Shown here: positions 32,799 to 52,864 of the stretch, one piece after another
How the letters are laid out: the number at the start of each line of letters is the position of its first letter
How positions within the stretch are numbered: the stretch's first letter is position 1
Assembly (NCBI GenBank): GCA_965249275.1
Contig: CBDFLQ010000006.1
Coordinates: 96,001-160,000 of the forward strand
Origin: Dehalococcoidia bacterium
GTDB taxonomy: Bacteria; Chloroflexota; Dehalococcoidia; Plut-88900
Direction of reading: 5' to 3'
Length of the DNA: 64,000 nt
Notes under the pieces: generated by a model
The model's input: only the letters and a program-made list of their open reading frames with translations
Told to the model about the DNA's origin: nothing
The model's database searches: none
Position numbers and translations under genes: made by a program

Positions 32799-32828
32799 TT
32801 GACCTTATATGAACACTTGTGCTATATT
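32799..32828 (+). promoter_or_regulatory. Sigma70 promoter with LexA-like operator (element 1)
   Basis: TTGACC-N18-TATATT with GAACACTTGTGC (32811-32822) in the spacer. Confidence 0.7.
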
Positions 32829-33071
32829 AGCCTCCAGGTCCCGACACCCCACGTCGGCCCTAATCAGGAAAAGGACCAAGGAGTTCCATGAGTCGCATGG
32901 CCCACACATCGGCCCGTCGTTACCGAGCGGTATGGGACCGCCCGGCCACCGACACGCGCCTCCTCCCCAATCCCTATTCGCCCTGTCCCCATCTCAACAC
33001 CCACTACAAGCGCTGCCCAAAGGCCCAACGCCTGTGCCTTCGCAGCGATCAATCATCGTCCCGCCCCCTGC

Positions 33072-33636
33072 ATGGAAGGTCCCCGGACAAATCAAGGCAC
33101 GCCCTGCTGCAGGGCAGCCGCCTCCGCATCAGCGCCCCCGTCGAGGGGCATACTTACGTCGCCGACGTAGTCCTTGCCGGCGAATCCCAACAGTCGGATG
33201 AGCGCCGACTCAAAACCAACGCACCATTTAAGGATTCCACCGTCGTCACAACCGGAGAACTTCCGACTACGAACGCCGGTCACTGGTCCACGCTCCTATC
33301 CCTTGGGATGGTCGAGCACTTCTGGTGGACGGGACTGCCCCACAGCGAGAATTTCTCGCGTCTCGTCCACATCCCCTCAGAAGTTAGGGGCTATCGCACA
33401 GCCGTCGCCGATGTCAAACCTCCGTTGAGGCGGACACCGCGCATCGGTGCAATGGCTGGGCGCTTCTGGTGGTCGAGACTGCCCCACACCGAGATTCCCT
33501 CGCGTCTCCTCCACGTCCTCTCAGAAGCTCGGGGCTGTCGCAGAGTCGTCGCCGATGTGGAACATCCGCTGTGGCGGACAATAGGCATCGGTGCAGGCGT
33601 CGCCGTCTTCTTGCGCAACCGTCCGGGACCTTCCAT
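33072..33636 (+). ncRNA. Candidate large structured RNA, copy 1
   Basis: Closing stem ATGGAAGGTCCCCGGAC / GTCCGGGACCTTCCAT, many internal hairpins, 144-nt tandem domain duplication. Confidence 0.55.
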
Positions 33637-33728
33637 CCCCTCCCCCTCTGCCCCTCTAACAACCAAAACAGGTGTATACTCCCTCCATCCGGCATCCGGC
33701 CTTAGTCACCGACACGGGAGCAAGCGCC

Positions 33729-35057
33729 ATGACGAAGCTGAAGGTCGCTCACTACCTGAACCAGTTCTTCGCCGGCATCGGCGGCGAGGACAAGGCCAAC
33801 ACTCCACCGGGCACCGAACCCCGGCCCCTCGGCCCCGGCAACTCCCTCCACCAGACCCTGACCTCCTCTGGCGATGGAGCCGTCGTCGCAACCGTATTCT
33901 GCGGCGACACCTATTTCACCGAAAATGAAGAGGAAGCCCTCGACCGCATCGTCGAACTCGTCCGGGACTCCGGTGCCGACGTTCTCGTCGCCGGGCCCGC
34001 TTTCGGGTCGGGACGCTACGGCCTCGCCTGCGCCCAAGTCTGCCAAAAAGTTGCTTCTTCCCTCGGAATTCCCGTTGTAGCCGGAATGCACCCCGCCAGC
34101 CCCGGCGCCGAGCAGTACAAGGGCCAAGTCTACATCGCCTCCACCGCCGAGACCGCGGTCGGCATGCCAGCCGCCATCTCGGTCATGGCAAAACTCGCCT
34201 TGAAGCTCGGGCGCGGTGAGGAGCTCGGCCCCGCCGACGAGGACGGCTACATCCCAACCGGCCGGGTGAAGACCCAGGTCCACGAAAAGACCATGGCCCA
34301 GAGACTTGTCGACATGGCCCTCAAGAAGGTCAGAGGCGAGCCTTTCGAGACCGAGTGGCCCCTCCCCACCATGGAAAAGATAGCCCCGGCGCCCGCCATT
34401 GACTCCCTGGCCGGAGCCCGTATCGCCCTTGTAACCGAGGGCGGTGTCGTCCCCAGGGGCAACCCCGACAAGATTCCCAGCGGTTGGGCCCGCCACTGGG
34501 CCCGCTACGACATCGGCGACACTTCAGACCTCACCGCCGAGGAATGGCAGTCGGTCCACGGCGGCTTCGACACCACCACGCTGAACCGTGATCCGGACAG
34601 AGTAGTGCCCCTTGACGTGATGCGTGACCTTGAGGAGGAGAAGGCCATAGGCAAGGTCCATGAGTATATGTACTCGACCGTCGGGAACCTTGGCTACGTT
34701 GCCAACATGAAGCAGTTCGGCCAGGACATCGCCGCCGAGCTTCAGGCCGCCGGCGTCCAGGGGGTGATCCTCACCGGCACCTGAGGCACGGGTACGCGTA
34801 GCGGCGCTACGCTCGCCAAAGAGTTGGAACGGGCCGGACTGCCCACCGCCTTCATCACTGCAATGGTCCCCTTGGCTCAGAGCATCGGTGCAAACCGCAT
34901 CGTCCAGGGCAAGTCGGTAACAACGACTACAGGAGACCCCAGTCTCCCCCCCGACGAAGAAAAGGCTTTCCGCCGAAGACTCGTCGAGAGGGCTCTTAAG
35001 TCCCTCCAGTCTACTCCACAGGACCAGGAAGTCGTCTGGGGCGAGGACCGGGGCTAG
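33729..35057 (+). CDS. grdB: Glycine/betaine/sarcosine reductase selenoprotein B (GrdB-like), Sec at TGA 34782-34784
   Basis: HYLNQFFAGIGGEDKA, AGPAF..GRYG, HGGFD...DPDRVVPLD, then GT-U-GTGTRSGATLAKELERAG...IGANRIV continuing in frame; SECIS-like hairpin follows. Confidence 0.9.
34785..34817 (+). promoter_or_regulatory. Bacterial SECIS-like hairpin
   Basis: GCGTAGC-GGC-GCTACGC (34796-34812), starting 12 nt after the UGA, with G in the loop. Confidence 0.75.
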
Positions 35058-36592
35058 ACCGCCACCCGCTCCAGGTCTTTCAGTATCGCCTTTGCTGCGT
35101 TGTGTCCCGGGGCCCCAGTGATCTCTCCGCCCGGGTGCGTCCCCGACCCACACATGTAGAACCGGGAGATGTTCGACCGGTACGGCATCCGCCCCGAGAA
35201 AATCTGTTTAGTCGTTATGTCTATGTGCCGGATGTTGCCGTCCGTGAGAAATTGCCTGATCTCGATGTCCTCCGGCGTCTGCAATGTACAGTCAACTATC
35301 GACTCCCGGAAGTTGGGCGCGTAGGTCGTCAGTATGTCTATAAGCTGCTCCCCGACCTTCGGCCCCTCCACGTCCCAGGAACCATCCTTAAGCTCCGCTG
35401 GCGCGTACAGCGTCCACGAAGAGAGCACGTGGTGGCCTGCCGGAGTCAACGACTTGTCGTAGATCGAGGGCATTTGCACATTCATTACCGGACAGCTTGA
35501 TGGATAGCCGTTCTTGGCATCGTCCCAGCTCTGCTGGAAGTAGTCCACTGAGGGACAGATGCGGAAGTAGGCGGTCAGCCGAGGGTCGTACCCTTCTCCC
35601 AGGTAACTGCTGAAGTCAGGAAGTTCCCTAAGCGCCACCAGCAGCTTGACACAGTTCGCCCGAGTACTAAGCCCGTCCACCTTTGTCTTCGTTGCCGCAT
35701 CTACGTCCGCCGGGTCCACCAGGTCCCGATAAGTGCGCTTCGGGTCGGCGTTGGACACGACCATGAAGCTCCTGATCTCTTCACCGTTCTCCAGCCTCAC
35801 CCCAACCGCCGTCCCGTCTTCGACAATTACTTTGTCGACTACAGTGTTCAACCTGATCTCGACCCCGAGGGACTCGGCGTACCGCGCCATTGCGAATGGC
35901 AGTTGGCTCATGCCTCCGCGCGGGATCCCGTAATTCTCCGGCTTGGTGAATGCATTCACCCTCAGGTAGGCAAGGCTTAGTATGCTGCCCGGTGCGCTCG
36001 GGTCACCGGCGTCCTGGGCATCGATGAAGTGCGCCTTCACCTGCGGATGCTCGAAGTGCCTGTCTACAAGGTCTCTCATGCTGACGGTGAGCATGGTCTC
36101 CCATACTTCCTCGTCGCTGGTGCCTCTTACGTCCTGGTACACCTCCGCAATCGTCGGAGGCTCCCGGAACCAGTACCTGTGCAGGATCGCTGAGGCCCGC
36201 TCCCAGAAGCTCGTCCATTCCGGGAACGCCCGGGCATCCCGCTCCGAGAATCGGGCCAGCTCCGCCGCGTTCCGGTGATTCTCCCGGTACGTCATGATGT
36301 AGTTGCCGTCCGGGAACGGATCGAACCGGAACGTCGTGAACGGTATTATGTCTAGCCCGTTGTCCCTCAGCTTCAGGTCGTCTATCACCCGGCCCTGCAT
36401 GATGTGCAGAATGTAGGCGCAGTAGGGGATGGTGAAGCCCGGGGCAAGCTCGTCACTGACCACGGCGCCGCCCACCATTTCAAGCCGTTCCAGCACCAGG
36501 ACTTTCAGTCCTTCCTGGGCCAGGTATCCCGCCGTGACGAGACCATTATGCCCCGCCCCGATGATGATGGCGTCGTATTCGTGTTGCTGCAT
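35054..36592 (-). CDS. Phytoene desaturase-like FAD-dependent oxidoreductase
   Basis: IIGAGHNGLV, PRGGM, VVSNAD, CGSGTHPGGEITGAPGHNAA. Confidence 0.88.
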   Translation of the reverse strand: MQQHEYDAIIIGAGHNGLVTAGYLAQEGLKVLVLERLEMVGGAVVSDELAPGFTIPYCAYILHIMQGRVIDDLKLRDNGLDIIPFTTFRFDPFPDGNYIMTYRENHRNAAELARFSERDARAFPEWTSFWERASAILHRYWFREPPTIAEVYQDVRGTSDEEVWETMLTVSMRDLVDRHFEHPQVKAHFIDAQDAGDPSAPGSILSLAYLRVNAFTKPENYGIPRGGMSQLPFAMARYAESLGVEIRLNTVVDKVIVEDGTAVGVRLENGEEIRSFMVVSNADPKRTYRDLVDPADVDAATKTKVDGLSTRANCVKLLVALRELPDFSSYLGEGYDPRLTAYFRICPSVDYFQQSWDDAKNGYPSSCPVMNVQMPSIYDKSLTPAGHHVLSSWTLYAPAELKDGSWDVEGPKVGEQLIDILTTYAPNFRESIVDCTLQTPEDIEIRQFLTDGNIRHIDITTKQIFSGRMPYRSNISRFYMCGSGTHPGGEITGAPGHNAAKAILKDLERVAV

Positions 36593-36615
36593 TTAATGTG
36601 CTCCCGGACCCCGGA

Positions 36616-37707
36616 TTAGTCGTACATGATCACGCTTCGAGCTATGTGCGCGTCCCTCATGTCGTCGAAAGCCTCGTTGATGTCTTCCAGCTTGATCCTC
36701 TTGGAAATTATCTCGTCCAGCTTCAGCCGACCCTGTCGGTACAGCTCCATGTACTGTGGCATATCCACCCGGAAGTGATTGGAGCCCATGTTGCTTCCCT
36801 GGATTCGGCGCCCGTCCAGCATGGATGGACCATCTATCGTGATCTTCGTCCCCTGCGGGATCATGCCGATAACAGTCGCCGTGCCCCCCTTGTCTAGCAT
36901 GTCGTAGCACTGCTCCGCCGTCACGGCCTTCCCGATCGCCTCGAAGGCATAGTCGACTCCCAGGCCTCCCGTGAGCGACTTTACCTTTTCAACTACCCCG
37001 CCCTTAGACGCATCTATTACGTTAGTTGCCCCAACCCTCTGCGCAAATCCCAGCTTGTCTTCCACGGCGTCTATCGCTATAACTTTCGCCGCCCCGGCAA
37101 TGATCGCTCCATTGATCGCGCTCAGCCCCACCCCGCCACACCCAACAACCGCCACCGTGCTCCCCGGCCTCACCCTGGCTGTCCTCATCGCCGCCCCGAC
37201 TCCCGTGGTCACACCACAGCCAATCAACGCCTGTACTTCGATTGGCACGTCCTCTTCCACAACCACCGCCGCATTCTCATGGACTAGCATATATTCCGCA
37301 AAGGAGGACAGGTTCATCGCTTGGTGGATAACCTCGTCGCCCTTGTGCAGGCGTGGCGACTCGTTACGCCCCCTCTTGAGGCCTACTCCCCTGCAGTTCA
37401 CCATTTCACCCTGGATGCACTTGTCGCAGGTGCCACAGAACACGGAAAGGCAGGTTATGACCCTGTCTCCTGGCTGATGGTACGTCACCTGAGACCCGAC
37501 CGCTGCCACCGTCCCCGCAGCCTCGTGTCCCAGGATAGTCGGCAGAGGGCACTTGTACAGCCCGTCTATATAGTGCAGGTCGCTGTGGCAGACGCCGGAG
37601 GCGCCGGTCTTTATCAGGATCTCTCGGGGTCCGGGCTCTCCAACGTCAACCTCTTCGATCGTTACGGGCTCGAAGGGCGCTCTCATGACAGCTGCTTTCA
37701 TCTTCAT
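36616..37707 (-). CDS. Zn-dependent alcohol dehydrogenase (class III-like)
   Basis: GVCHSD, GHEAAG, CGTCDKC, GCGGVG. Confidence 0.92.
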   Translation of the reverse strand: MKMKAAVMRAPFEPVTIEEVDVGEPGPREILIKTGASGVCHSDLHYIDGLYKCPLPTILGHEAAGTVAAVGSQVTYHQPGDRVITCLSVFCGTCDKCIQGEMVNCRGVGLKRGRNESPRLHKGDEVIHQAMNLSSFAEYMLVHENAAVVVEEDVPIEVQALIGCGVTTGVGAAMRTARVRPGSTVAVVGCGGVGLSAINGAIIAGAAKVIAIDAVEDKLGFAQRVGATNVIDASKGGVVEKVKSLTGGLGVDYAFEAIGKAVTAEQCYDMLDKGGTATVIGMIPQGTKITIDGPSMLDGRRIQGSNMGSNHFRVDMPQYMELYRQGRLKLDEIISKRIKLEDINEAFDDMRDAHIARSVIMYD

Positions 37708-37771
37708 TTCAGGGGTCCTCCTATGGATTGGGTCAATCGGCCTTGGTTATTCGTGTCGTCGTATGGTCAGG

Positions 37772-38854
37772 CTAATTAAAAGTGAGCACGCTGCGGGCCA
37801 CGTGACCTTCCTTCATATCGTCGAAGGCTTTGTTAACTTCGTCCAGACTGAGCTCTTGGGAGATCATCTCCTTCAGCTTCAATCGCCCTTGTAGGTACAG
37901 CTCTATGTAGCGGGGCATGTCGATCCGGAATCTGTTGGAGCCCATGCTGCTCCCGCCAATCCTTTTCTCGCTCAATAGCGAGGGGCCGTCCAGGTGGATC
38001 ATGGTCCCTTCCGGGATCATCCCGATAACCGTGGCCAAGCCCCCGGAATCGAGCATGTTGTACGCCTGCTCCGCCGTCTCTTTCAGCCCGATAGCCTCGA
38101 ATGAGTAATCTACGCCCCTCGGCGAGAGTGAAAACACCTTATCCACAGTCCCCCCACCCGAGGCGTCAATCACGTCGGTCGCCCCAAGCTCTCTCGCCAG
38201 CGCCAGCTTCGTCTCTATGGTATCGATGGCTATAATCCGCTCCGCACCCGCAAGCACCGCTCCCTGCAATGCGCTCAGACCGATGCCCCCCAACCCCAGC
38301 ACCGCAACCGTGCTTCCAGGTGCAACCTTTGCAGTGTTCAGGGCAGCGCCCACACCCGTCGTAACCGCACACCCGATCAACGCCACCTCTTCCAGGGGAA
38401 CGTCCTTCCGTATCTTGCAGGTGGCGTTTTCGTGGACCAGCATGTACTCGGCGAACGTGGACAGGGACGAAAACTGGTGCATGATGTCCCCGTTCTGTCG
38501 CAGGCGGGGCGGCTCGGTGGGGAGACGTTCCATTCCCTTACTACGGCATAGGTTAGGATGCCCGCTAAGGCACTTGTCGCATACGCCGCAGAATACCGAC
38601 AGGCAGGTGATCACATGGTCTCCCGGCTTGACGTAGGTCACCATCGAGCCTACGGCCTCTATCACCCCCGCTGCCTCGTCACCCAACACAGTGGGCAAGG
38701 GAAACGTGTACTTGCCTTCCATATAGTGGAGGTTGCTGTGGCACACCCCCGAGGCTACCGTCCGCACCACCACCTCGTTCGGCCCCGGATCGTCGATCTG
38801 TACGTCCTCAATGGTTAGCGGGGTATCGACCTCGCGTAGTACGGCTGCTTTCAT
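37772..38854 (-). CDS. Zn-dependent alcohol dehydrogenase (tandem paralogue)
   Basis: GVCHSN, GDEAAG (His replaced by Asp), CGVCDKC, GLGGIG. Confidence 0.9.
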   Translation of the reverse strand: MKAAVLREVDTPLTIEDVQIDDPGPNEVVVRTVASGVCHSNLHYMEGKYTFPLPTVLGDEAAGVIEAVGSMVTYVKPGDHVITCLSVFCGVCDKCLSGHPNLCRSKGMERLPTEPPRLRQNGDIMHQFSSLSTFAEYMLVHENATCKIRKDVPLEEVALIGCAVTTGVGAALNTAKVAPGSTVAVLGLGGIGLSALQGAVLAGAERIIAIDTIETKLALARELGATDVIDASGGGTVDKVFSLSPRGVDYSFEAIGLKETAEQAYNMLDSGGLATVIGMIPEGTMIHLDGPSLLSEKRIGGSSMGSNRFRIDMPRYIELYLQGRLKLKEMISQELSLDEVNKAFDDMKEGHVARSVLTFN

Positions 38855-39116
38855 GGGTCACCTCCCTATCGTGGGTCTCAATGCGGTGTAAGTTTAGTTA
38901 GCGGCACACAATGCGGGTCACGGGTGAGTTTATTATCCCCCGTCGCATGGCGTCAACACGTCTATCCTGCGTCAGAAAATACGTCCACGCCCGTGGTCCA
39001 CCCGCTGTCTTCCTCAATTCACCGAGGCTTATTGATGTAAGATGTACGAACGGAGCTGGTTACACAAGTAAGCACATTACTATTCCATATGCCAGTTTCC
39101 CACTAGGAGCTTGCCC

Positions 39117-39659
39117 ATGACGTCGCCATCGGGTTCCAAGATCATCATGGAAGGCCAATTTGACACGCGCTACATTGGATACTACCGCATTTGGGTGTCC
39201 ATGTTCCTTGTCATCACCGTAGTCGGCATTCTCTTCATACCGTTCTGGCTGATTTTCAGCCTGTGGTACGGCCCCGAGTCCATACGCCGCCTCTCCGTTC
39301 GGCTCACCCCAACCACCCTCGAAATCGGGAAAGGCGTCTACTTCCGTAAAGAAATCACCATTCCCCTGAGCCGCATCACCGACGTCCGGCTCCACGATGG
39401 CCCCCTGATGCGATTCTTCCGCATCCGCGGCCTTAAGGTCGAGACCGCAGGCCAGTCCGGGCAGACCTCCGGCACCGAGGGCGATCTGTTAGGCGTCATA
39501 GACGCAGTAGAGTTCCGGGACGCCATCCTGCGTGAACGGGAAAGGTCGGTGGAAGGTGTTCAGCCCGCTGTTGCCCCCTCCCCTGCCACTACCGGTGACG
39601 CCGACTCCGTCCTAACCGAAATCCGTGACATCCTCGCCCGCATAGAGTCAAAGGGCTGA
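39117..39659 (+). CDS. Bacterial PH-domain (bPH_2) membrane protein
   Basis: N-terminal TM hairpin, then GVYFRKEITIPLSRITDV..GPLMR..LKVETAG. Confidence 0.8.
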   Translation: MTSPSGSKIIMEGQFDTRYIGYYRIWVSMFLVITVVGILFIPFWLIFSLWYGPESIRRLSVRLTPTTLEIGKGVYFRKEITIPLSRITDVRLHDGPLMRFFRIRGLKVETAGQSGQTSGTEGDLLGVIDAVEFRDAILRERERSVEGVQPAVAPSPATTGDADSVLTEIRDILARIESKG

Positions 39660-39716
39660 ATGGCTTAAGACTAACCGGAGCGCGGCGCACTCCACTCACT
39701 TCCTCCCTTCAAACAC

Positions 39717-39762
39717 AAAAGGAATCGGCGAAAGCGCTGGCCGCTTTCGCCGATTCCTTTTT
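39717..39762. terminator. Bidirectional intrinsic terminator
   Basis: AAAAGGAATCGGCGAAAGCG-CTGGC-CGCTTTCGCCGATTCCTTTT between convergent genes. Confidence 0.85.
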
Positions 39763-39781
39763 CTGCAAAATAGTTGGGCAG

Positions 39782-40240
39782 CTACTCCGTAGTTACCTTC
39801 TCCCCCTCACCAAGTAGAGCGGCCTTCAGGGTATGCCAGGCCAGGCTTGCGCACTTGACTCGCATCGGGAATTGGCTGACCCCAGTTAGCGCCGCTAACT
39901 TGCCCAGCCTATCGATGGCCTCCATCATACCCATGTCGGTCTCCCCGGTCACCGACTGGTGGAACAGTTCAAACAGCTCCCCGGCTTCCTCTTTATTCAG
40001 ACCCTTCACCAACTCCGTCATCATCGATGCCGACGCCTTGGAAATAGCGCACCCATCCCCCTGAAACCCGACCGCCCTGATAGTTTCCCCGTCCAGCACG
40101 ACTTCCACGTTTATTATGTCCCCGCACAGCGGGTTGTACCCTTGCGCCGAGCCGTTGGCGTTTTCAAGAGGCCCGAAGTTTCGGGGCCGGTTGTTATGGT
40201 CCAGCACGGCTTGCTGATACAGGTCTGAAAGATCGCTCAT
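39782..40240 (-). CDS. sufU: SUF system NifU-type scaffold/sulfur transfer protein
   Basis: NPLCGD, GCAISKASAS, RVKCA. Confidence 0.93.
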   Translation of the reverse strand: MSDLSDLYQQAVLDHNNRPRNFGPLENANGSAQGYNPLCGDIINVEVVLDGETIRAVGFQGDGCAISKASASMMTELVKGLNKEEAGELFELFHQSVTGETDMGMMEAIDRLGKLAALTGVSQFPMRVKCASLAWHTLKAALLGEGEKVTTE

Positions 40241-45121: not shown

Positions 45122-45158
45122 AAAAACCGGGGCCTGCCGGTAAAGCGGGGGCCCCGGT
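45122..45158 (-). terminator. Intrinsic terminator-like hairpin about 55 nt upstream of sufB
   Basis: Minus strand ACCGGGGCC...GGCCCCGGT followed by TTTT. Confidence 0.55.
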
Positions 45159-45291
45159 GAGCCACCGAGTTGAATGTCTAGGGGAATTATAATCTGTTTT
45201 GTTATAAAAATCCATTGAACCCCCTCAGTCAGTCTCACCGCCGAGGCGTGAATCCACCCCCAGTGGCACACCCGCTCACCTGAATGCCTCC

Positions 45292-45643
45292 GTCATTCCG
45301 GCCGGCGAGAGCCGGAATCCATCCCCGGTGGCGGGGCCGTGTCCGGTCCCCTCTCCCGTCGGAGGGAGAGGGGTAGGGTGAGGGTGATTCTCCCACCCCT
45401 CCCCCCGAGCCCCGGAATCCATCTCCAGTGGCAGGGCCGCTCACCCTGAGCGCCGTCGAAGGGTCGAGCGGGGGGGGGAGGCCCCGCACTGCCAAACCGT
45501 CGCACCCGTCCAACACCCCCCTCCCCCCTTGGCAACGATATATCAGTAAAACAGGGTGGGTGGGCGGGTACCAATTAAACGGGGTGGCCGGGAGGCGTCC
45601 TACCCCCTCTCCCTCCGATGGGAGAGGGGTGGGGTGAGGGTGA
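45292..45643. repeat. REP mosaic paralogous to 32391-32766
   Basis: Families C, B, D and B plus AACGATATATCAGTAAAACAGGG. Confidence 0.8.
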
Positions 45644-45670
45644 CCTTTCCCCAAAAGTGACACGAACCCC

Positions 45671-45700
45671 TTGACCCAATCGAAACACATGTACTATATT
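45671..45700 (+). promoter_or_regulatory. Sigma70 promoter with LexA-like operator (element 2)
   Basis: TTGACC-N18-TATATT with AAACACATGTAC in the spacer. Confidence 0.65.
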
Positions 45701-45882
45701 CGCCCCAGGCTCCGACCTTGTACGTCGGCCCTAATAAGGAAAGGACTAAAGGAGTCCCATGAGTCGCACCAGCCTAATCAGGCCCCGTCACACCCGAGCG
45801 GTATGGAACCGCCCGGCGCCCGACACGCGCCTCCTCCCGAGTCCCTCTTTCAACACCGTGTCCCTCGGATTCCCTCTACCAA

Positions 45883-46285
45883 GCGATGGAAGGTCCTTCG
45901 ACTGTCGGCGGCATTCTCCCTCTAAGGGCCTTTGCCGATATATCGCCCCCTCATCCGGGCGTTTGCTCCTCGCCGACTTTACCCTCGCCGAGGATATATC
46001 CGCGTCTTTTGACGCGTTTGCCAGGGCCTTAGTGCCCTTATCCGGCTCCACCACCCGCTGTAACTGGAGATTCTCCTTCGGTCCACCGCGGCATCGAGTC
46101 GTTATGCCGTCCCACGCAGCGGTCGAGCGCTGCCGCCGGACGGATAATCCCCACCCAGAGACGCCCTCGACTTCGGTATGTCTCCTCCGACATGCGTGGG
46201 GATATCGCAGGACAGCCGTCGACGCCACCGGCGTCGGCGCAGGTGTCGTCGTCTTCCTGCTTACCAGTCCCGGACCTTCCATCGC
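45883..46285 (+). ncRNA. Candidate large structured RNA, copy 2
   Basis: Perfect 14-bp closing stem GCGATGGAAGGTCC / GGACCTTCCATCGC; homologous to copy 1. Confidence 0.55.
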
Positions 46286-46302
46286 CTCCCCTTCCTTTGC
46301 CC

Positions 46303-46338
46303 CATTCCCAGGCTCCGTGAGGAATCTCGGACTTGCCC
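46303..46338 (+). repeat. REP-like family A, degenerate
   Basis: CATTCCCAGGCTCCGTGAGGAATCTCGGACTTGCCC. Confidence 0.65.
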
Positions 46339-46793
46339 ACTCACCTATCTCTGCCCTCCCAGCCACTCAGCCGAAATCCAGGTGGGGAGGCCCCTCACCC
46401 CGCCACCCACGAAAGGAACCCGCCTATCTGCTCACATCCCCCACTCTCCCAACCGAGCAGCCAAAGAAAACGTCCCTTTTCCAAAACAATCAAAATTCGT
46501 GTCTCTAACCGAAATTCAATCAACCCCCCCATCGGGACAACCCCCACAAAAGGAGACCGCCTGCTAGCCCATACCCCCCACTCACCCCCCACAATCGAAG
46601 ATCCGCCTCAGGAGGACTAAATATCGCACCTTCCGGGGCCTGGCATCTGGCCCTCACTGAACGGGTCAAAGGGACAGCGTACTGGCGAGAAGGCACCCTT
46701 TACCCTCATCAACCTTCCCCTCCCGGTTGACGCCCACGCACCCGCTTATTACAGTTGTCTCCCGAGACGACCATCCCGAAGGGAGTACCCGAC

Positions 46794-48191
46794 TTGACCT
46801 CTGAACAACCCACCCGAATAGAAAAAGACTCCATGGGCCCAATGGAGGTCCCCGCCGACGCCTACTACGGCGCTTCGACCATGCGGGCTGTCCTCAATTT
46901 TCCCATCAGTGACCTGAGGTTCCCCCGTTCCTTCATCCGAGCCCTCGGCCTTATAAAGCTCACCGCCGCCGAGGTTAACTCCAGCCTCGGATTGCTGGAA
47001 CCCGACAAGAAAGACGCCATCGTCCAGGCCGCCCAGGAAGTCGTCGACGGCAAACTTGACGACCATTTCGTCCTCGATGTCTTCCAGACTGGCTCCGGCA
47101 CCTCCACGAACATGAACGCCAACGAGGTCATCGCCAACCGAGCCTCCGAGATCATGGGCGGCGATATCGGCTCCCGTATCGTCCATCCCAACGACCACGT
47201 AAACAAGGGCCAGTCTTCCAACGACGTCATCCCCACAACAATGCACCTCGCTGCCCTTACCGAAATCGAGACCAATCTCATCCCCGCCCTCCAGCGCACA
47301 CAGGCCGCCCTTGAATCCAAGTCCCGAGAGTTCTGGGACATCATCAAGACTGGTCGCACTCACCTGCAGGACGCGACCCCCGTGCGGCTCGGGCAGGAGT
47401 TTCTTGGTTACGCAGGCCAGATCCAGCTCGGCATCCGACGCCTCTCCCACGCCCGAGAAGAGCTTTCACAGGTCGCCCTCGGCGGCACCGCTGTCGGCAC
47501 GGGGGTCAACACCCACCCCGAGTTCTCAGCAAGAGTCACCGCCCGCGTCTCCGAGCTCGGCGGTGTGGAAATTCGAGAAACCGAGAACCACTTCCAGGCC
47601 CAGAACACCCTCGACGCCGTCGTCGAGTCCAGCGCCGTCCTACGCACCATCGCCATCAGCCTTACCAAGATAGCCAACGACATCCGGTGGATGGGCTCAG
47701 GCCCGAGGGCTGGCATCGGAGAGCTTGCCCTGCCGGAAGTTCAGCCCGGAAGCTCCATCATGCCCGGCAAGGTCAACCCGGTCATTCCGGAATCCGTCAT
47801 CCAGGTCTGCGCCCAGGTCAAAGGCAACGATACGGCCATCGCCGCTGCGGCCCAGGACAGCTACTTCGAGATCAACCTGATGATGCCCGTCGCCGCCTAC
47901 AATCTCCTGCAGTCAATCTCCATACTCGCCGCCGCCGCGGACAACTTCACCGGCCAGTGCATCGAGGGCCTCCAGGCCACCGACCGGGGCCCCCAAACCG
48001 TGGAGCGAGGCCTTATGATCGGCACCTCCCTGGCCCCCGTCATCGGCTACGACCTCGCCGCCCAAATCGCCAAGGAAGCCGCGAAGAGTGACCGCACCAT
48101 CCGTGAGGTCGCCCGAGAGCTCACCAACCTCTCCGAGGAAGACCTCTCCCGCATCCTAGACCCCAAAACCATGGTCGAACCCCGCGCCTAG
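46794..48191 (+). CDS. fumC: Class II fumarate hydratase
   Basis: RIEKDSMG, QTGSGTSTNMNANE, HPNDHVN, GRTHLQDATP, GSSIMPGKVNP; start taken as TTG after AAGGGAG. Confidence 0.95.
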   Translation: MTSEQPTRIEKDSMGPMEVPADAYYGASTMRAVLNFPISDLRFPRSFIRALGLIKLTAAEVNSSLGLLEPDKKDAIVQAAQEVVDGKLDDHFVLDVFQTGSGTSTNMNANEVIANRASEIMGGDIGSRIVHPNDHVNKGQSSNDVIPTTMHLAALTEIETNLIPALQRTQAALESKSREFWDIIKTGRTHLQDATPVRLGQEFLGYAGQIQLGIRRLSHAREELSQVALGGTAVGTGVNTHPEFSARVTARVSELGGVEIRETENHFQAQNTLDAVVESSAVLRTIAISLTKIANDIRWMGSGPRAGIGELALPEVQPGSSIMPGKVNPVIPESVIQVCAQVKGNDTAIAAAAQDSYFEINLMMPVAAYNLLQSISILAAAADNFTGQCIEGLQATDRGPQTVERGLMIGTSLAPVIGYDLAAQIAKEAAKSDRTIREVARELTNLSEEDLSRILDPKTMVEPRA

Positions 48192-48202
48192 AGTTTCTCC
48201 AG

Positions 48203-48240
48203 AAAAGAAAGCGTCGGCGCAATGCGCCGACGCTTTTCCT
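48203..48240. terminator. Intrinsic terminator after fumC, probably bidirectional
   Basis: AAAGCGTCGGCGC-AAT-GCGCCGACGCTTTT. Confidence 0.85.
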
Positions 48241-48326
48241 ATCCTATTACGCCCCTATTCCATCCGTCATTCCCGAGAAATCGGGCTCACGAAGTACGGC
48301 CTATCCAGAGTTAAATGTTCAGGTAG

Positions 48327-49421
48327 CTACCCCGGAAACTGGATCACAGACCGCAACACCTCACCCCTCTCCATCTCCTCAAAAGCCTCCTCCACGTCCT
48401 CCAGCTTGATCAGCTTCGTCACCGCCCTGTCCAGGTCCAGCTTGCCCTGCAGGTACCAGTTGGCCAGCATCGGGAAGTCCCGAGACGGCAGGTTGTCCCC
48501 GTACCAGCTAACCTTCAAAGACCCCCCGAGCCCAAAGAACTGCAGCATAGGTAGTTCCATCACCATCGTCGGGTCCGGCACCCCGATCAGCGTGCACGTC
48601 CCCGCCAAGTCCCGAGACCACAGCGCCTGCAGCAACGTCGCCGGTGTCCCGACAGCCTCGAAGGAGTGGTCGACACCGTGGCCTCCCGTTATCTCCTTGA
48701 TCGCTTCAACCGGGTCGCCCTTGGTCGCATCGACTACGTGAGTAGCCCCGAAATCCTTGGCCCATGCCAGCTTGTTATCGGCTATGTCCACCCCGATGAT
48801 CGTCTTTGCATTAGCCAACTTGGCGCCCATGATCACGCTGCAACCCACCCCCCCGCATCCATAGACCGCCACCGTGCTCCCCCGACGCACGCCCCCCGTA
48901 TAAAGCGCCGCCCCGACTCCCGTGGTCACTCCGCAGCCGAGAAGACAGGCCTGCTCCGGCGGACATTCCCGGGGCACGGGTATAGCCTGCTTAGCCGACA
49001 CAACCGTATGCGAGCAAAACCCTCCGATTCCCAGCGCGGGCGAAAGCTGCTTCCCGTCGCTCTTGGCGAACATCCGAGGTTTCGCATTCAGGCTCGCCGA
49101 GCACAAATGCGGCTGCCCTATAGCGCAAAACCGGCAGTTGCCGCACGGCGCCCGCCAGGCGATCACCACGTATGCGCCTACAGCCGGAGATTCCACCCCC
49201 TCCCCCACCGACTCCACGATACCCGCAACCTCGTGCCCGAGCAGGAAGGGAAACTCATCGTTAATTTTGCCCAGCTTATAGTGGAGGTCGGTATGGCACA
49301 CCCCACTGGCCTGAATTCTTACCAGCACCTCACCGGGCCCCGGGTCCTCAACCACCATCTCCTCCACCCGTGTAGGCACACCCGCCTCCCTCGAAATCAC
49401 CGCCTGCGCTATCGTAGACAT
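48327..49421 (-). CDS. S-(hydroxymethyl)mycothiol dehydrogenase-like Zn-ADH (MscR type)
   Basis: GVCHTDLHY..INDEFPFLLGHE, RDLAGT, SWYGD.LPSRDFP. Confidence 0.8.
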   Translation of the reverse strand: MSTIAQAVISREAGVPTRVEEMVVEDPGPGEVLVRIQASGVCHTDLHYKLGKINDEFPFLLGHEVAGIVESVGEGVESPAVGAYVVIAWRAPCGNCRFCAIGQPHLCSASLNAKPRMFAKSDGKQLSPALGIGGFCSHTVVSAKQAIPVPRECPPEQACLLGCGVTTGVGAALYTGGVRRGSTVAVYGCGGVGCSVIMGAKLANAKTIIGVDIADNKLAWAKDFGATHVVDATKGDPVEAIKEITGGHGVDHSFEAVGTPATLLQALWSRDLAGTCTLIGVPDPTMVMELPMLQFFGLGGSLKVSWYGDNLPSRDFPMLANWYLQGKLDLDRAVTKLIKLEDVEEAFEEMERGEVLRSVIQFPG

Positions 49422-49495
49422 GTACAACCTCCGCGAAAGCTGAAATGTCCGAGTATCCTAACACAGTCCTCAGGAAAGCATCAGCAAAATCATAG

Positions 49496-51808
49496 TCAAG
49501 GCCTAGCTTGATTGAATTTTGAGAGCCATGCAAGATCACTCTCTAATGCGGGGCGACGCCAATATATGCGTCTCACTTCCGATACAAATATCGGATCCGT
49601 ACTTGATACCGCGTGCCAGATTCTTAATGTTTCTGTGAGTGCTTGAATGTCCTCCAATTCATCATATGCGAGAGCAAGTCCCCGGTAGATTCGCGAACGT
49701 GGAACTGAATATTCTTCTGGAGGAGCCTTTAGTGCCCGCCGGAATAAATCTACCGCAGCGTATCGAGCGCTCTTCGCCTGTGAGAATTGGTTGAGATTGT
49801 CCAAGGTCTTGGCTTCTCGCGACCTTAGGTAGCCCGCGCGGTGGCAACGTCCATCTGATTCCTCACACCTTTCGAGTGCCAGTTGCGAAACTTTGATCGC
49901 GTTCCTCCACAGCCCTAGAAGATTCTCCTCAGTATCCCTCCAAACCGCTTCCTCCGCAGAACGGATTTCCAATTCCGTCCAGTGGAAATACATCTCTGGT
50001 TTTCTGGGCCCGAACTTATGGGCGTTCTTGAAAGCCTCCTGAGCCTCTGACCGGAATTGTTGAGGGTTCCTAGCATATATCCATCCTAGCATTCCATACA
50101 GGTCAGGATCGTCTCTTAGCTCTCCAGTCATTGCTAACACTAATTTGTTGGTGGCAGCCTCTATTCCAGAGTGATCGTGTTCCTCTTTAGCATCCCTAAT
50201 CGCCTTCCCTATCGCCAGACGCTTTGCTTCCGTTGTTCGCTCTCCTGTTAGGCCCTTATATGCTGACACCGCCGATAGTAACTTCGGGTGCTTCGCGAAT
50301 GTGCTTCGAACTAAACGCCGCGTATTGGAATTGATGCTGTAAGCAGGCTCGGAAGTCTCTTTATTATCCACGCGGTGTATCAGTCCACTACTTAATAAGG
50401 TAGTGACACCGCTTTCCACATCATCGTCTGCCAGCCCCCCCACCTGGCTAATCTCAACAACGCGCAGAGGCCGATTGCCCACTGCAATTGAGATAAGCGT
50501 ATCTTCAGTCACACCTCCAAGGCGTTCCAACTGCCGTCGCAACGCATAAACGCGGGCCCCATCTCCTTTGCGGTGCTCCCATTCTTCAATTGCCTTCTTA
50601 ACCCCTACCAGTGCCGCATAACGGATGAGGTCATCGACGAACAGGGGATAGCCTTGTGTGACAGCTCGGATTCTAACAATGTTCTTTAGACATACATTTT
50701 CGTCGACGCCATATTCACCTGCGCGCCCAGCAATGAAGTTTTGGAGAGTCTCGTCGTCAAACGGAGGTACCTCCATGTAACGTATTCCTGGAATCTGTTG
50801 CCGCGAGGTAAACAAAACCTTGCTTGCGGTAGGGCGCAACTCGAACAGCAACATTTCCGCAGTATCCTGATCGTCAATCACTGTATCTAGATCGTCAACG
50901 ATCAGCAGACAGCGTGTATTCCTCAGTTCGGAGAGCATTTCATCTTTCGACACGTCGTAGCGATCACTTCCGTATAGTGCATTCACAATGCGATTACAGA
51001 ATGTAGGCACATCCTCAAAATCAGGTATCCGCTCTTTAGTAGAACGATCTACGTATTCAATCTTCTTTGCAGTGAGCCACACGATCGCGTCAATGTAATC
51101 AGACGCGATGTCTCGTATTTCCTGAGCGAACTTATGGGCCAGAGCGCTCTTCCCAACGCCACCATATCCCCACACCATGCGCTGTTTAGAGTCACTGGTA
51201 AACCAGTCCAACAACTCCCTCAATTGCTCTGATCTTCCTAGGAATTCGTCATAGATTTCGTCATGCGGGGGCAATTGAACCTCAATGGGTCTACCGCCCC
51301 AAGGATCAACTCCCGAAAGTAACGAGTCCAGAATGTCGTGAAACTCTTTCCCTATCGGGGAATTGATTGCATCCAGTAGTATTTGTGCGTTTTGGATAAA
51401 CCGGATTAAATCCACGCGGCGAATGATGTGTTCTTTGCGGCGATGCGCAAGGTTATGTCTGAGTTCTGTAATCTCTCCCAGATATACTTTCACTCGCTCT
51501 TGCTGACCCAATAAGCAGGAGAAAATCTTCCAATTACCAATGACAATGTTAGAGAGATGCTCAATGCCGAACAGTTCTTCATCAGATTTTCCCATGTCTA
51601 CGACCCGCATAGGGTTGTTCAACATCTTCTCTACGCGTAGGAACTCTTCCTCCTTAAAGTGTCTTCGCACTCCCTCCTTTAGCCAGTCATCTCCAATGGC
51701 CATCTGTAAGTTCTTTACTATCGGCTCATGGAATCCATCTAAGAAATCCAGTAGTTTCTCGTTGGCAAAGTCATTTATGTTCAAGATTGTTAGCCCCCTA
51801 TACCACAA
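49496..51808 (-). CDS. Swt1-like HEPN + NB-ARC/STAND ATPase + TPR protein (candidate antiphage defence)
   Basis: RHNLAH (RX4H), Walker A GYGGVGKS, Walker B LLIVDDLD, TSR, GYPL, helical repeat C-terminus; visibly lower GC. Confidence 0.8.
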   Translation of the reverse strand: MWYRGLTILNINDFANEKLLDFLDGFHEPIVKNLQMAIGDDWLKEGVRRHFKEEEFLRVEKMLNNPMRVVDMGKSDEELFGIEHLSNIVIGNWKIFSCLLGQQERVKVYLGEITELRHNLAHRRKEHIIRRVDLIRFIQNAQILLDAINSPIGKEFHDILDSLLSGVDPWGGRPIEVQLPPHDEIYDEFLGRSEQLRELLDWFTSDSKQRMVWGYGGVGKSALAHKFAQEIRDIASDYIDAIVWLTAKKIEYVDRSTKERIPDFEDVPTFCNRIVNALYGSDRYDVSKDEMLSELRNTRCLLIVDDLDTVIDDQDTAEMLLFELRPTASKVLFTSRQQIPGIRYMEVPPFDDETLQNFIAGRAGEYGVDENVCLKNIVRIRAVTQGYPLFVDDLIRYAALVGVKKAIEEWEHRKGDGARVYALRRQLERLGGVTEDTLISIAVGNRPLRVVEISQVGGLADDDVESGVTTLLSSGLIHRVDNKETSEPAYSINSNTRRLVRSTFAKHPKLLSAVSAYKGLTGERTTEAKRLAIGKAIRDAKEEHDHSGIEAATNKLVLAMTGELRDDPDLYGMLGWIYARNPQQFRSEAQEAFKNAHKFGPRKPEMYFHWTELEIRSAEEAVWRDTEENLLGLWRNAIKVSQLALERCEESDGRCHRAGYLRSREAKTLDNLNQFSQAKSARYAAVDLFRRALKAPPEEYSVPRSRIYRGLALAYDELEDIQALTETLRIWHAVSSTDPIFVSEVRRIYWRRPALESDLAWLSKFNQARP

Positions 51809-51957
51809 ATTAACTTACCCTGTGATTCTAAGAACAAGATATCATCTGTATGCACAGCATGAGTAGCCTCCACCCCCAATTGACCCCCACCCCCTCCGTC
51901 ATTCCAGCCGCCGAGAGCCGAAATCCATCCCATCTCCCTTCTACCCAGTACTGAACT

Positions 51958-51997
51958 AGAGGCAGAGGTTGGCGCAGAAGCGCCAACCTCTGCCTCT
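51958..51997. terminator. 18-bp perfect hairpin
   Basis: AGAGGCAGAGGTTGGCGC-AGAA-GCGCCAACCTCTGCCTCT. Confidence 0.6.
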
Positions 51998-52110
51998 GTT
52001 CTTATCTCTCCCTCTCCCTTAATGGCCCTAAGGGAGAGGGGGATAAAGGGGGTGAGGGTTCCCCGGTGGGGTTGGGGCGTTGTCCCCCGCCTAGGTGTGC
52101 AATCAACCCC

Positions 52111-52140
52111 TTGACCTTACCTGAACATCCGTGCTACTAT
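52111..52140 (+). promoter_or_regulatory. Sigma70 promoter with LexA-like operator (element 3)
   Basis: TTGACC-N18-TACTAT with GAACATCCGTGC (52123-52134). Confidence 0.7.
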
Positions 52141-52347
52141 CCCCACCGTTCGAACACCACCCTAACTATCTCAAGGAGGAACCAAAAACCCAGGGAAGCC
52201 CACCCGACCCACCCGAGGACTCAACGTCCAAGCCCATCCCAATGGCCCTCACACGGGGCCCGCGGCTCAAGCGAAAGCGGAACGTCCGCCTATGGAGAAA
52301 CGCCATCTCCTCACTCCATCGGGTCCCGTGCCCCTTCCCTACCCCCA

Positions 52348-52775
52348 GGCGATGGAAAGACGCCCTGGTTCGCTATCGTTCCATGTGAGGCTCCTAACGG
52401 AGATGCCGCTCCTTCAAGCGGAATAGCGGTCGGATAGGCCCGGCGCCGAGGTCCTCTCGGTACACCGTCCGCTTAATGAAGCCGGGAGCCGGTGGTCTAC
52501 GCGCTCCGGGTCGCACCGGCAAACTTGAACACACTACGCCTGCAGAGGCCCGGCATCGGACGCTGGACGGGCCTCCTGGCCGCCCTATAGCGGTGCAGCC
52601 AACCCCCGGAGTCGGGCTCGGACCTGCTGGCCCTGAAGGTCCCTGCCCATGTCCAGTGTATACAGGGCCAAAGGCCGCAGCAGCGGCAAAAGCGGGCCGG
52701 CGCCCTTGCCCCAGGGCGTCGGAGCGCCCGAAGCACATGAACAGGGGCAGCGTCCAGCAAGCGTCTTCCATCGCC
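52348..52775 (+). ncRNA. Candidate large structured RNA, copy 3
   Basis: Closing stem GGCGATGGAAAGACGC / GCGTCTTCCATCGCC; nested helices GCTGGACG/CGTCCAGC, CTGCCC/GGGCAG, CCCGGC/GCCGGG, GCCGGTG/CACCGGC. Confidence 0.6.
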
Positions 52776-52864
52776 AACCTCCCAGACAGAACAATCAAAA
52801 CCCTACCCCCCACAACTGAATAGAAACCCGGCGTGTCACTAATCTACTGGACGAGTTCCCCCAA

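Follow-up and report, generated by a model that had tools for sequence, protein, structure and literature searches.

Three loci in the window, the 64,000-nt stretch of a Dehalococcoidia contig analyzed here, carry a promoter with a LexA-like box and a domain closed by a long-range stem, and the question is whether such loci are genes for a structured RNA or the remains of something else. An earlier note regarded them as a set of three paralogous noncoding RNAs or, alternatively, as MITE-like units. Judging from the evidence given below, they are probably internally deleted copies of an orphan phage-type terminase operon, composed of a gene in the TerS position and terL.

The architecture described in the earlier note was present in all three copies, each on the forward strand. 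In copy 1, the head (32784..32828) consists of an upstream motif, GTG(G)CA, and a promoter in which the −35 hexamer TTGACC (32799-32804) is followed by an 18-nt spacer and the −10 hexamer TATATT (32823-32828), adjoined by the dyad GAACACTTGTGC (32811-32822). Behind AAGGAG (32878-32883), an open frame of 346 codons (32888-33928) enters the downstream gene. The terL-homologous segment (32975..33646; aa ~166-342 of a 437-aa query, 47% identity) includes a tandem duplication of 144 bp (33308-33451 and 33452-33595). The 5' arm ATGGAAGGTCCCCGGAC (33072-33088) lies over codons aligning with terL G-K-G-R-F and the 3' arm GTCCGGGACCTTCCAT (33621-33636) over codons aligning with G-P-S-I, and the C-rich, G-poor tail contains AACAACCAAAAC (33658..33669). 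The head of copy 2 (45660..45700) begins with GTGACAC, followed by TTGACC (45671-45676), the dyad AAACACATGTAC (45683-45694), and the adjoining TATATT (45695-45700); AAGGAG (45749-45754) precedes a frame of 249 codons (45759-46508). Its terL-collinear segment (45843..46292; aa 192-342, 34% identity) is stop-free in one frame, the long-range arms pair 45883-45896 with 46272-46285, and the tail motif AACAATCAAAA lies at 46486..46496. A separate REP-like insert is located between the 3' arm and the tail motif of this copy.

Copy 3 has a head (52100..52140) with TTGACC (52111-52116), the dyad GAACATCCGTGC (52123-52134), and the adjoining −10 hexamer TACTAT (52135-52140), and its AAGGAGG (52173-52179) has no start codon behind it. 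This motif opens a leader (52173..52347) that continues with GAGGACTCAACG and is common to 53 elements. The body (52348..52775, "B-type"), closed by the arms GGCGATGGAAAGACGCC (52348-52364) and GCGTCTTCCATCGCC (52761-52775), is without a conserved frame, and the tail (52790..52840) is made up of AACAATCAAAA, CCCACAACTGAATAG, and then GTGTCACTAA, upstream of the ribF promoter (52865-52893). The downstream AACAA(C/T)CAAAA was thus found in every copy, at 33658, 46486, and 52790. The leader hairpin, which had been taken to be shared, was not: that of copy 3 is not homologous and belongs to a mini-insert of ~22 nt (~52277-52300) occurring in only two of ten close paralogues, and the leader hairpins are additions unrelated to the family. 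The loci had been called intergenic; copies 1 and 2, with their long frames, are not simply so.

The three loci are members of a genus-specific dispersed family of ~70 copies per genome rather than a three-member set. A genome-wide nhmmer search of the 2.9-Mb MAG found 73 promoter heads, which fall by leader into 13 of type A (including copies 1 and 2), 53 of L type (including copy 3), and 7 others. Copy-3 DNA had matches in each of the eight further genus genomes, whereas 32 genomes from outside the genus gave none (0/3 other genera of the family, 0/29 other families of the class). No description of a terminase-derived promoter-bearing repeat was found in the literature searched. The REP, which the earlier note had included in the unit, has 433 copies genome-wide and is an unrelated addition; only 22/73 heads have one in the 200 nt upstream of them.

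Two heads (C7:110677 and C5:2112) precede an intact operon of a 137-146-aa gene and a 462-aa gene. The 462-aa protein matches PHROG terminase-large-subunit families (E 2.6e-6, 3.8e-6, and 2.5e-4), and the best PDB matches of its model are nuclease domains of large terminases, with G20c at E 3.7e-6 and TM 0.60-0.69 followed by T4 gp17 and HK97; these matches suggest that the operon encodes a small TerS-position protein and TerL. In three other genera, the gene lies within a terS-x-terL-y-portal-like cluster. Intact terS-terL is present in all nine genus genomes, in one to four full-length stop-free copies each, and is under protein-level constraint (differences by codon position in terL: 81, 58, and 140). 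By tblastn, terL aa ~169-342 was found in 12 type-A elements, copy 1 among them, eleven at 42-52% identity and one as a shorter match (aa 280-339), and six L-type elements matched terL at 29-36% identity. The short elements look like internal-deletion derivatives of this operon in which the promoter and 5' leader survive together with codons ~170-375 of terL, and their closing stem coincides with the terL codons G-x-G-R-F/S and G-P-S-I. The frame ATG of copies 1 and 2 would be the terS start, while the terS origin of the leader is suggested by a weak similarity judged by eye. What had been read as the domain of an independent RNA is a remnant of terL.

A promoter scan gave one to two sites per locus at the three loci versus 0.1-0.3 in shuffles, and the LexA-like box of the earlier note is a GAAC-N4-GTTC-like dyad adjoining each −10. 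GAAC-N4-GTTC is given in one published account as the Gram-positive LexA motif (PMC3323433). As the reference for the dyad in this organism we took the perfect box GAACGCCCGTTC upstream of lexA (63570..63581, forward strand, hand-counted; lexA ATG at about 63597); recA carries the box GAACACATATCC. Across the heads, the consensus reads G/A-A/T-A-C-A-N-N-T-G-T-N-C and abuts TATATT; the commonest dyad is GTAC/GAAC-N4-GTAC. Most dyads are one or two bases away from GAAC-N4-GTTC, and the element dyads depart from the perfect lexA box to the same extent. The genome yielded no S24-type repressor other than LexA, and LexA control of the element promoters is plausible. By the gene calls of a crude in-house codon-usage caller, the downstream gene is co-directional in 58/73 cases (about 56% expected) and 38/73 elements lie in divergent intergenic regions (about 28% expected). 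The terminator scan gave no convincing terminator behind the three elements. The elements are probably transcribed, and a weak hint of this comes from metatranscriptome contigs on 52187-52760 in 4/4 runs of one study, although these could stem from carried-over DNA and the repeat has many copies.

The closing stem is conserved beyond the three copies: the arm duplex reaches −20 kcal/mol or lower in 55/64 elements versus 48/640 shuffled arms, and pairing scores were −33.2 for own arms, −27.1 for arms swapped between elements, and −14.2 kcal/mol for shuffled arms. Its co-variation likewise held up, in the form of three arm-sequence classes whose two halves change together. The interiors fold better than shuffles. 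For the three copies themselves, folding against shuffles was uneven, with z of −3.5 in copy 1, −7.6 in copy 2, and only −2.1 in copy 3. Without arms, mean z was −2.25 for L-type interiors (26/50 below −2) and −3.12 for type-A interiors (8/10 below −2). The arm-to-arm segment of intact terL gave −4.61 in the genus (14/14 below −2) and −0.2 in other Dehalococcoidia genera (1/12), and random host coding DNA gave +0.06 (2/35); within intact terL, this segment had z −3.83 versus −0.42, −1.5, and −0.35 in the other three. Because terL of the genus already folds strongly, this property did not first arise in an RNA gene standing on its own. The structured segment has 0.665 identical codons versus 0.71-0.84 elsewhere in terL, and its hairpin richness could come from mutation or recombination and not selection, because synonymous sites are not extra-conserved.

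A trans-acting structured RNA family exapted from terL, with a damage-induced RNA of 0.5-0.8 kb and a functional arm-closed domain, is an unlikely reading, and equally doubtful is its extension that the domain binds orphan TerS/TerL or another partner while the 5' AAGGAGG acts as a ribosome-binding stabilizer. The promoter kept in 73 copies, the conserved and covarying arms, the well-folding interiors, and the RNA-library contigs over the body all agree with it. In an alignment of 41 B-type bodies from seven genomes, the consensus fold was better in sense than in antisense (−101.5 versus −77.3), although single-sequence energies favored antisense in 63/64 elements and 14/15 intact genes, and the strand signal is contradictory. 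The covariation for which the earlier note had proposed a test exists in the body, with double changes in 7/83 pairs versus 2.2 in shuffles, but is modest (RNAalifold covariation term −2.1). The orthologous interiors of genomes G002 and G008 differ by hairpin changes that, judged by eye, are apparently compensatory. While the ribF locus is occupied in 8/9 genus genomes, at least five unalignable interior types are found there, and a single RNA function predicts otherwise. Equal folding potential within intact protein-coding terL, the open frame of type A, and an Rfam search that matched no known family, as the earlier note had it, also weigh against this reading.

Under the deletion-derivative reading that we prefer, copies persist long at some loci and swap interiors by recombination. 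The copy-1 locus is occupied in 4/9 genomes and the copy-2 locus in 3/9, and the copy 1 orthologues are mosaics. The MITE-like idea is borne out in the internal-deletion origin and the presence or absence between species, but neither target duplications nor a transposase were seen, and no terminal inverted repeats beyond a 7-bp GTGACAC/GTGTCAC in some copies; the analysis thus turned up no mechanism by which the family spreads. A role at the DNA level is quite improbable. In this case, the hairpin-rich module, perhaps with the promoter/terS 5' region, would be a pac-like or cruciform site for recognition or cleavage by TerS/TerL. Just as improbably, the ~70 dispersed sites would allow an SOS-induced terminase to cut, package into helper capsids, or move DNA, and the short elements, on a similarly slim chance, would serve the intact cassette as its non-autonomous partners. 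In several pac-type phages, the pac site is located within terS or next to it, and of the cassette just the promoter/5' part and the structured segment survive in the short elements. The intact, protein-constrained operon in every genus genome, the RuvC/RNase H-like terminase nuclease fold predicted for the TerL C-terminal domain, the strong folding of both strands, as expected for a cluster of DNA palindromes, and the variable occupancy of the copy-1 and copy-2 loci are consistent with such a role. However, no portal or major-capsid families were found in the genome (87% complete), defined termini were not seen, the tendency of elements to face the downstream gene speaks for a constraint related to transcription, and the copy at ribF is an old one that has stayed in place.

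It is also very unlikely that type A elements, copies 1 and 2 included, are real fast-evolving genes encoding a TerS N-terminal peptide fused to a truncated TerL nuclease domain, and we give little more credence to the alternative that they act as stop-free cassettes donating sequence to intact terL by gene conversion. Their ATG lies 5-6 nt behind AAGGAG, the frame is open in 13/13 copies of the genome (216-409 codons) and in 4/4 copy 1 orthologues (346, 455, 363, and 257 codons), indels between copies are in frame, the orthologues are mosaics, and intact terL varies most between the arms (0.73 amino-acid identity). In simulation, the probability that a copy remains open was 0.44 at 5% and 0.11 at 15% random substitution, and the 13 open frames are at odds with plain decay. 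Type A is, however, without amino-acid constraint: differences by codon position are flat (1223, 1326, and 1241), and among codons with a single difference 484 are synonymous versus 1078 non-synonymous. The frames lack a conserved end, that of copy 1 extending 257 nt into the next gene; they were left uncalled by the codon-usage gene caller, and those of copies 1 and 2 had no Pfam or PHROG match. The 53 L-type copies have the same architecture with the frame lost, with stops in most copies and arm-to-arm distances leaving remainders of 0, 1, and 2 modulo 3 in 21, 24, and 17 cases. A free-standing noncoding RNA gene family of a known kind is not favored.

As internally deleted terminase operons, the copies would be non-autonomous derivatives retaining the cis-acting parts of the cassette, that is, the promoter/leader and the structured module. 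Each keeps a sigma-70-type promoter with the dyad against its −10, a leader with a strong Shine-Dalgarno sequence, and a part of terL, mostly nuclease domain, that is bracketed by an inverted repeat and has abnormally high hairpin potential. A dimeric repressor, probably LexA, would occupy the dyad, and the promoter would fire on loss of the repressor, giving a sense transcript of 0.6-0.9 kb without an intrinsic terminator that runs towards the usually co-directional downstream gene. The decayed frame may still be translated in type A, while in L type, with start codon and frame gone, the RNA would be non-coding; the two arms would fold the variable interior into a single large hairpin-rich domain. 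If this is true, the present effect of the family would be damage-type inducible transcription beside host genes.

The three loci that the earlier note had described as sharing one architecture (copies 1, 2, and 3, at about 32.8-33.67, 45.67-46.3, and 52.11-52.80 kb of the window) do share it, as was borne out by reading the loci, by a promoter scan, and by alignment. Each consists, in this order, of a -35 hexamer TTGACC, an 18-nt spacer, and a -10 hexamer (TATATT, TATATT, and TACTAT, respectively), with a 12-nt dyad directly against the -10 (GAACACTTGTGC in copy 1, AAACACATGTAC in copy 2, and GAACATCCGTGC in copy 3), followed 3' of the promoter by AAGGAG(G), a long-range inverted repeat around 400-560 nt, and an AACAA(C/T)CAAAA tail. 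The scan returned one or two promoter sites per locus versus 0.1-0.3 in shuffled sequence, and the mean column identity of the three aligned copies was 63%, contributed mostly by the head (the promoter region with the -35, the dyad, and the -10), the arms (the two halves of the internal inverted repeat), and the tail. When 10 close relatives of copy 3 were aligned with their flanks, similarity extended from GTGACAC just 5' of the -35 to shortly past CCCACAACTGAATA, and the elements are 0.6-0.9 kb long.

The family is real, is larger than first described, and fits no known RNA family. In the genome as searched (2.9 Mb, seven contigs, 87% complete), blastn with the three copies gave dozens of matches with every large contig represented, and an nhmmer profile of the head, used instead of an earlier fuzzy search whose 776 matches were too unspecific, counted 73 heads, so that the supposed three-member set has to be replaced by a genome-wide one. 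Thirteen heads, including those of copies 1 and 2, are followed by AAGGAG and then ATGAGTCGCA (type A); 53, including that of copy 3, by AAGGAGG and, without a start codon, GAGGACTCAACG (L type); and seven by a different sequence. Extension of the search to relatives, as had been proposed, found copy-3 DNA in 8/8 other genomes of the genus and in 0/32 outside it.

Two features that had been counted as parts of the unit were rejected. The upstream REP accompanies only 22 of the 73 heads and occurs in 433 copies genome-wide, and the leader hairpin of copy 3 is an approximately 22-nt mini-insert present in 2 of its 10 close paralogs rather than a conserved structure. The REP family (CCCTCTCCC-loop-GGGAGAGGG, then GGGGTGAGGGT) lies at 32716-32775, 45598-45645, and 52007-52060 of the window; REPs frequently occupy the same spacers as the elements, yet are independent of them. 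The position of the palindromic mini-insert (GGAACRTCCGCC..GGAGGA; window ~52277-52300) within elements varies, and it is tandemly repeated in some cases; it was also seen in the tails and leaders at C7:805296, C5:477200, C6:293573, and C7:586261 (contigs of this genome). It resembles a very small independent unit that is mobile or arises by slippage. GTGACAC is also found 5' of the -35 in some unrelated promoters and perhaps serves this organism as a general upstream element of promoters. At C5:231918, a head whose box is near-perfect (GAACATATGTTG) precedes a series of short CAATCAA-type repeats, which the element tail motif AACAATCAAAA resembles, and no obvious gene follows. Another head, on the minus strand at C7:349002, precedes tandem ~57-bp repeats (GATGCCTGCGGCAATGCGCCGCGGAAGAA...) in a 376-codon frame and then a gene of integrase/transposase type; the element at the copy-2 locus of another genome of the genus (G003) is filled with repeats of a similar kind.

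Two of the heads, at C7:110677 and C5:2112, drive an intact two-gene operon encoding a 137-146-aa protein and then a 462-aa protein. These long copies, at C7:110677-112614 (L003; followed 3' by REPs and then an rpmH-like gene) and C5:3-2112 (L004), encode only this pair. The 462-aa protein matched three PHROG families of terminase large subunits (E-values of 2.6e-6, 3.8e-6, and 2.5e-4), with no Pfam match and no match in a PDB sequence search. Its AlphaFold model, built from 18 homologs, is of low confidence overall (mean pLDDT 49.8; 10-residue blocks over residues 251-400 average 39-89), and only its nuclease-domain match was used: in a Foldseek search of the PDB the best matches were nuclease domains of large terminases (G20c, E-value of 3.7e-6, TM 0.60-0.69), followed by T4 gp17, HK97, and RB49, with 34 matches at E ≤ 0.001. 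Judging from the profile matches, the predicted nuclease fold, and the packaging context in other genera, the protein is most probably a terminase large subunit (TerL). The small protein, which matched no Pfam or PHROG family, is called TerS by the position of its gene only.

Among the 41 genomes of the class that were sampled, 33 encode the large protein, generally in a single full-length copy, and related database records are titled as Dehalococcoidia MAGs. In three other genera (L027, L028, and L029), the gene sits in a cluster encoding a small protein, a second small protein, TerL, a small HTH-like protein, and a portal-like protein; this terS-x-terL-HTH-portal-like cluster could represent a conserved, widely distributed module of prophage or GTA type. 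The terminase operon stands alone in this genome, where a portal-like query from another genus and the Phage_capsid, SPP1_portal, and Phage_portal families found no packaging hardware, a non-detection that does not establish absence at 87% completeness. A further head at C6:411196 (L005), which has a GTTC-N4-GTTC dyad, drives only a 135-aa homolog of the small TerS-position protein and adjoins a DNA-methyltransferase-like gene on the opposite strand.

Within the genus, each genome holds 1-4 full-length terL copies and 8-36 matches to TerL, mainly fragments. Our tblastn search with TerL showed that 12 type-A elements, including copy 1, correspond to about residues 169-342, 11 of them at 42-52% identity and one over a shorter stretch (residues 280-339). 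Copy 2 matched residues 192-342 at 34% identity in a single frame without a stop, and six L-type elements matched at 29-36%. Copy 1, which holds a 144-bp tandem duplication, is 87% identical to the intact gene at the DNA level across 319 nt. The 5' arm falls on codons aligned with the G-K/D-G-R-F/S motif of terL and the 3' arm on those for G-P-S-I, and complementarity at these positions amounts to 6-13 bp in the intact genes and 12-20 bp in the derived copies. The head and terL residues ~170-375 are thus common to the elements and to the intact terS-terL cassette, which is what would be expected if the elements arose by internal deletion from a longer element. The type-A ATG and first codons resemble, by eye, the start of a TerS-position gene from a congeneric genome (MSRK...), and the L-type leader would be the same region with the ATG lost, again going by visual similarity. 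No terL similarity was detectable in the copy-3-type body, whose derivation we base on the shared head, leader, arms, and tail. The best-supported reading is that the elements descend by deletion from an orphan terminase operon and form a family, spread through the genus, whose members carry a promoter and retain a hairpin-rich module also embedded in the intact terL genes.

The two types differ in what became of the reading frame. The arm-to-arm distances of L-type elements leave remainders of 0, 1, and 2 on division by three in 21, 24, and 17 cases, most copies have stops in the terL frame, and indels of 1-2 nt separate the 41 copy-3-type bodies that were aligned; as judged from these sequences, L-type elements are non-coding and have the lost frame and the stops of decayed pseudogenes. 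That description suits copies 1 and 2 in part, which have the neutral codon-position pattern but open frames. The type-A frame is open from the ATG in 13/13 copies (216-409 codons), and in all four copy-1 orthologs, while in a simulation the probability that a copy stays open was 0.44 to 0.11 at 5-15% substitution. Type-A differences are spread evenly over the codon positions (1223, 1326, and 1241), with 484 synonymous to 1078 non-synonymous changes; the corresponding counts for intact terL are 81, 58, and 140. Because open frames persist against these simulated chances with flat codon positions, it seems that in type A selection acts against stops and not on the amino-acid sequence. A Pfam search of the frames of copies 1 and 2 gave nothing useful.

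All three copies fold better than their dinucleotide shuffles (z-scores of -3.5, -7.6, and -2.1 for copies 1, 2, and 3), and the proposed closing stem is conserved. Of 64 elements, 55 have an arm duplex at or below -20 kcal/mol, a level reached by 48 of 640 shuffled arms; pairing is stronger between the two arms of one element than after exchange of arms among elements (-33.2 vs. -27.1 kcal/mol), and three arm classes covary. Among 41 copy-3-type (B-type) bodies from seven genomes, the covariation signal is modest: double changes occur in 7 of 83 pairs versus 2.2 ± 1.0 in shuffles, with 0/500 shuffles reaching 7. The strand signal is contradictory, since the RNAalifold consensus of these bodies favors the sense strand (-101.5 kcal/mol, covariation term -2.1) over the antisense strand (-77.3, covariation term -0.8), whereas single-sequence energies favor the antisense strand in 63/64 elements, an advantage attributable to the C-rich sense strand.

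The high pairing potential of diverging interiors (the arm-to-arm stretches) is also real. With the arms removed, the mean z-score was -2.25 for L-type interiors (26/50 below -2) and -3.12 for type-A interiors (8/10). The arm-to-arm segment of intact terL from other genomes of the genus gave -4.61 (14/14), compared with -0.2 for the equivalent segment in other Dehalococcoidia (1/12) and +0.06 for random host coding segments (2/35). Across the 15 intact terL genes of the genus this segment alone stands out (-3.83), compared with -0.42 and -1.5 for two upstream segments and -0.35 for the downstream one; it is also the most variable part of the TerL protein, and no extra synonymous-site conservation was found in it. 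High pairing potential is therefore a genus-specific property of this part of terL, which the relics kept. Since the signal is present inside an intact protein-coding gene as well, it cannot tell an RNA gene apart from a feature of the DNA itself, and the hairpin richness could come from selection or from a mutation or recombination process that favors palindromes.

The dyad of the heads has the consensus G/A-A/T-A-C-A-N-N-T-G-T-N-C and directly abuts the -10; among the 73 heads, A (34), G (15), C (13), and T (11) occur as the third base of its right half-site. LexA is the sole S24-type repressor found in the genome, the lexA gene at the end of the window (~63597) has a perfect box (GAACGCCCGTTC), and the box of recA is GAACACATATCC. 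The Gram-positive LexA motif is given as GAAC-N4-GTTC (PMC3323433), and from its sequence the head dyad would be LexA-like, with one or two departures from that motif. By a crude gene calling of our own, which gave 2396 genes, 58 of 73 elements have a downstream gene in the same orientation, against ~56% expected, and 38 of 73 lie in divergent spacers, against ~28% expected, an orientation bias that provides indirect evidence that the element promoters are active. No convincing intrinsic terminator was seen 3' of the elements; the candidates found are weak or internal. Contigs from four metatranscriptome runs of one study cover window positions 52187-52760 of copy 3, with none from RNA libraries on 51900-52186 or 52761-52965; these coverage limits are not taken as transcript ends, and we regard the contigs as a weak hint of transcription only. 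Tails ending in GTGTCACTAA (window 52840-52893 and five other loci) are followed about 25 nt on by the downstream gene's own -35 (ribF, a tRNA gene, and others). The 5' leader of ribF has a hairpin (GTGACCCCTATC..GGTAGGGGTC, window 52895-52935) that is conserved in 9/9 genomes of the genus (orthologous loci L031-L038) and could be a regulatory leader structure.

Elements are polymorphic in presence at orthologous sites. Of nine genomes of the genus, eight have an element at the copy-3 (ribF) locus, four at the copy-1 locus, and three at the copy-2 locus; exact empty-site junctions were not definable, as these spacers also contain REPs and other inserts. At the ribF locus, the head, leader, arms, and tail are conserved, but there are at least five kinds of interior that do not align with one another. 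The whole copy-2 spacer (window 45660-46760) is 97% identical to that of a second genome of the genus (G002, L120), with 399/400 interior positions matching, despite a 21% difference at third codon positions (79% identity) in the flanking aspartase-like gene, which suggests recent exchange between lineages. The copy-1 orthologs are mosaics in which ~98%-identical windows adjoin ~45%-identical ones, pointing to frequent exchange between copies or lineages.

The closest known systems include MITEs and other non-autonomous deletion derivatives of mobile elements, such as the promoter-carrying Correia elements of Neisseria. As in such families, many short dispersed copies stand beside a few long protein-coding ones, the short elements look like internal deletions that kept their ends or cis parts, and they are intergenic, promoter-bearing, and variably present between related genomes. 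The long copy here, however, encodes a terminase pair and not a transposase, and no transposase was linked to the family; the elements have their strong inverted repeat inside, on terL codons, instead of at the ends, and a 3' GTGTCAC of 7 bp is present in some copies only; no target-site duplication appeared when 10 copies were aligned with their flanks; and the copies are 0.6-0.9 kb long, with at least one locus stably occupied across the genus. The pac sites of SPP1- and P22-type phages lie in or beside the small-terminase gene, and the head and leader of the elements likewise match the promoter of the TerS-position gene together with the 5' end of that gene. Unlike pac sites, the elements number ~70 in one chromosome, have a second conserved module inside terL, and occur in an 87%-complete genome where packaging machinery was not found. 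REP13E12 of Mycobacterium tuberculosis is a LexA-regulated dispersed repeat with a Gram-positive-type SOS box at the promoter of each copy, and our family is likewise dispersed, with a putative box of this type at its promoters. REP13E12 is protein-coding and has few copies, whereas most elements here are non-coding relics of a terminase operon and their LexA box is predicted.

The silent cassettes pilS and vls, which serve gene conversion, resemble the elements in that a portion of a single gene exists in numerous incomplete copies, which are highly variable and free of stops, and in having mosaic orthologs; the elements differ in carrying strong promoters, in that 53 of 66 have lost the frame, and in that a terminase gene has no evident reason for variation. 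Large structured bacterial ncRNAs such as OLE, GOLLD, ROOL, and HEARO are, like our elements, several hundred nucleotides long and hairpin-rich with a long-range closing stem and their own promoter; they differ in having Rfam families, whereas here ~70 copies per genome, many with unalignable interiors, are derived from a protein-coding gene and are still present within it. A known RNA family as the identity of the elements was rejected, in keeping with the earlier impression, since Rfam 15 gave 0 matches on the 64-kb window at gathering thresholds (the only Rfam scan covering copies 1 and 2), and an E-value-mode scan of 52000-52950 at copy 3 gave 10 weak, spurious matches far below threshold, the best on the REP hairpin at 52004-52050.

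A bolder reading joins the orphan, damage-controlled TerS/TerL and the ~70 elements into one system, in which the arm-flanked hairpin-rich module, part of terL and also dispersed over the chromosome, would be the terminase's cognate nucleic-acid site. An enzyme for packaging phage DNA would then act as the nuclease or motor of a new mobile or chromosome-processing element, for example in terminase-driven transposition, or in an SOS response that cuts DNA at many chromosomal sites and packages it into helper capsids. We consider this improbable. If the reading of the elements as deletion derivatives holds, the structured segment is genus-specific, is localized within a still-functional terminase gene, and is the very part that the relics retain, which suggests an undescribed cis-acting nucleic-acid module tied to terminase biology. 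No comparable repeat family was found in a search of the literature outside subscription journals and supplementary files. Gene callers may be misled by the long open frames of repeats like these, and screens for ncRNAs by their good folding scores. If the derivation is correct, approximately 1-2% of the genome would consist of promoter-bearing relics of a terminase operon across a genus of uncultured Dehalococcoidia, which would be an unusual origin for a bacterial repeat family and would place ~70 damage-type promoters beside host genes.
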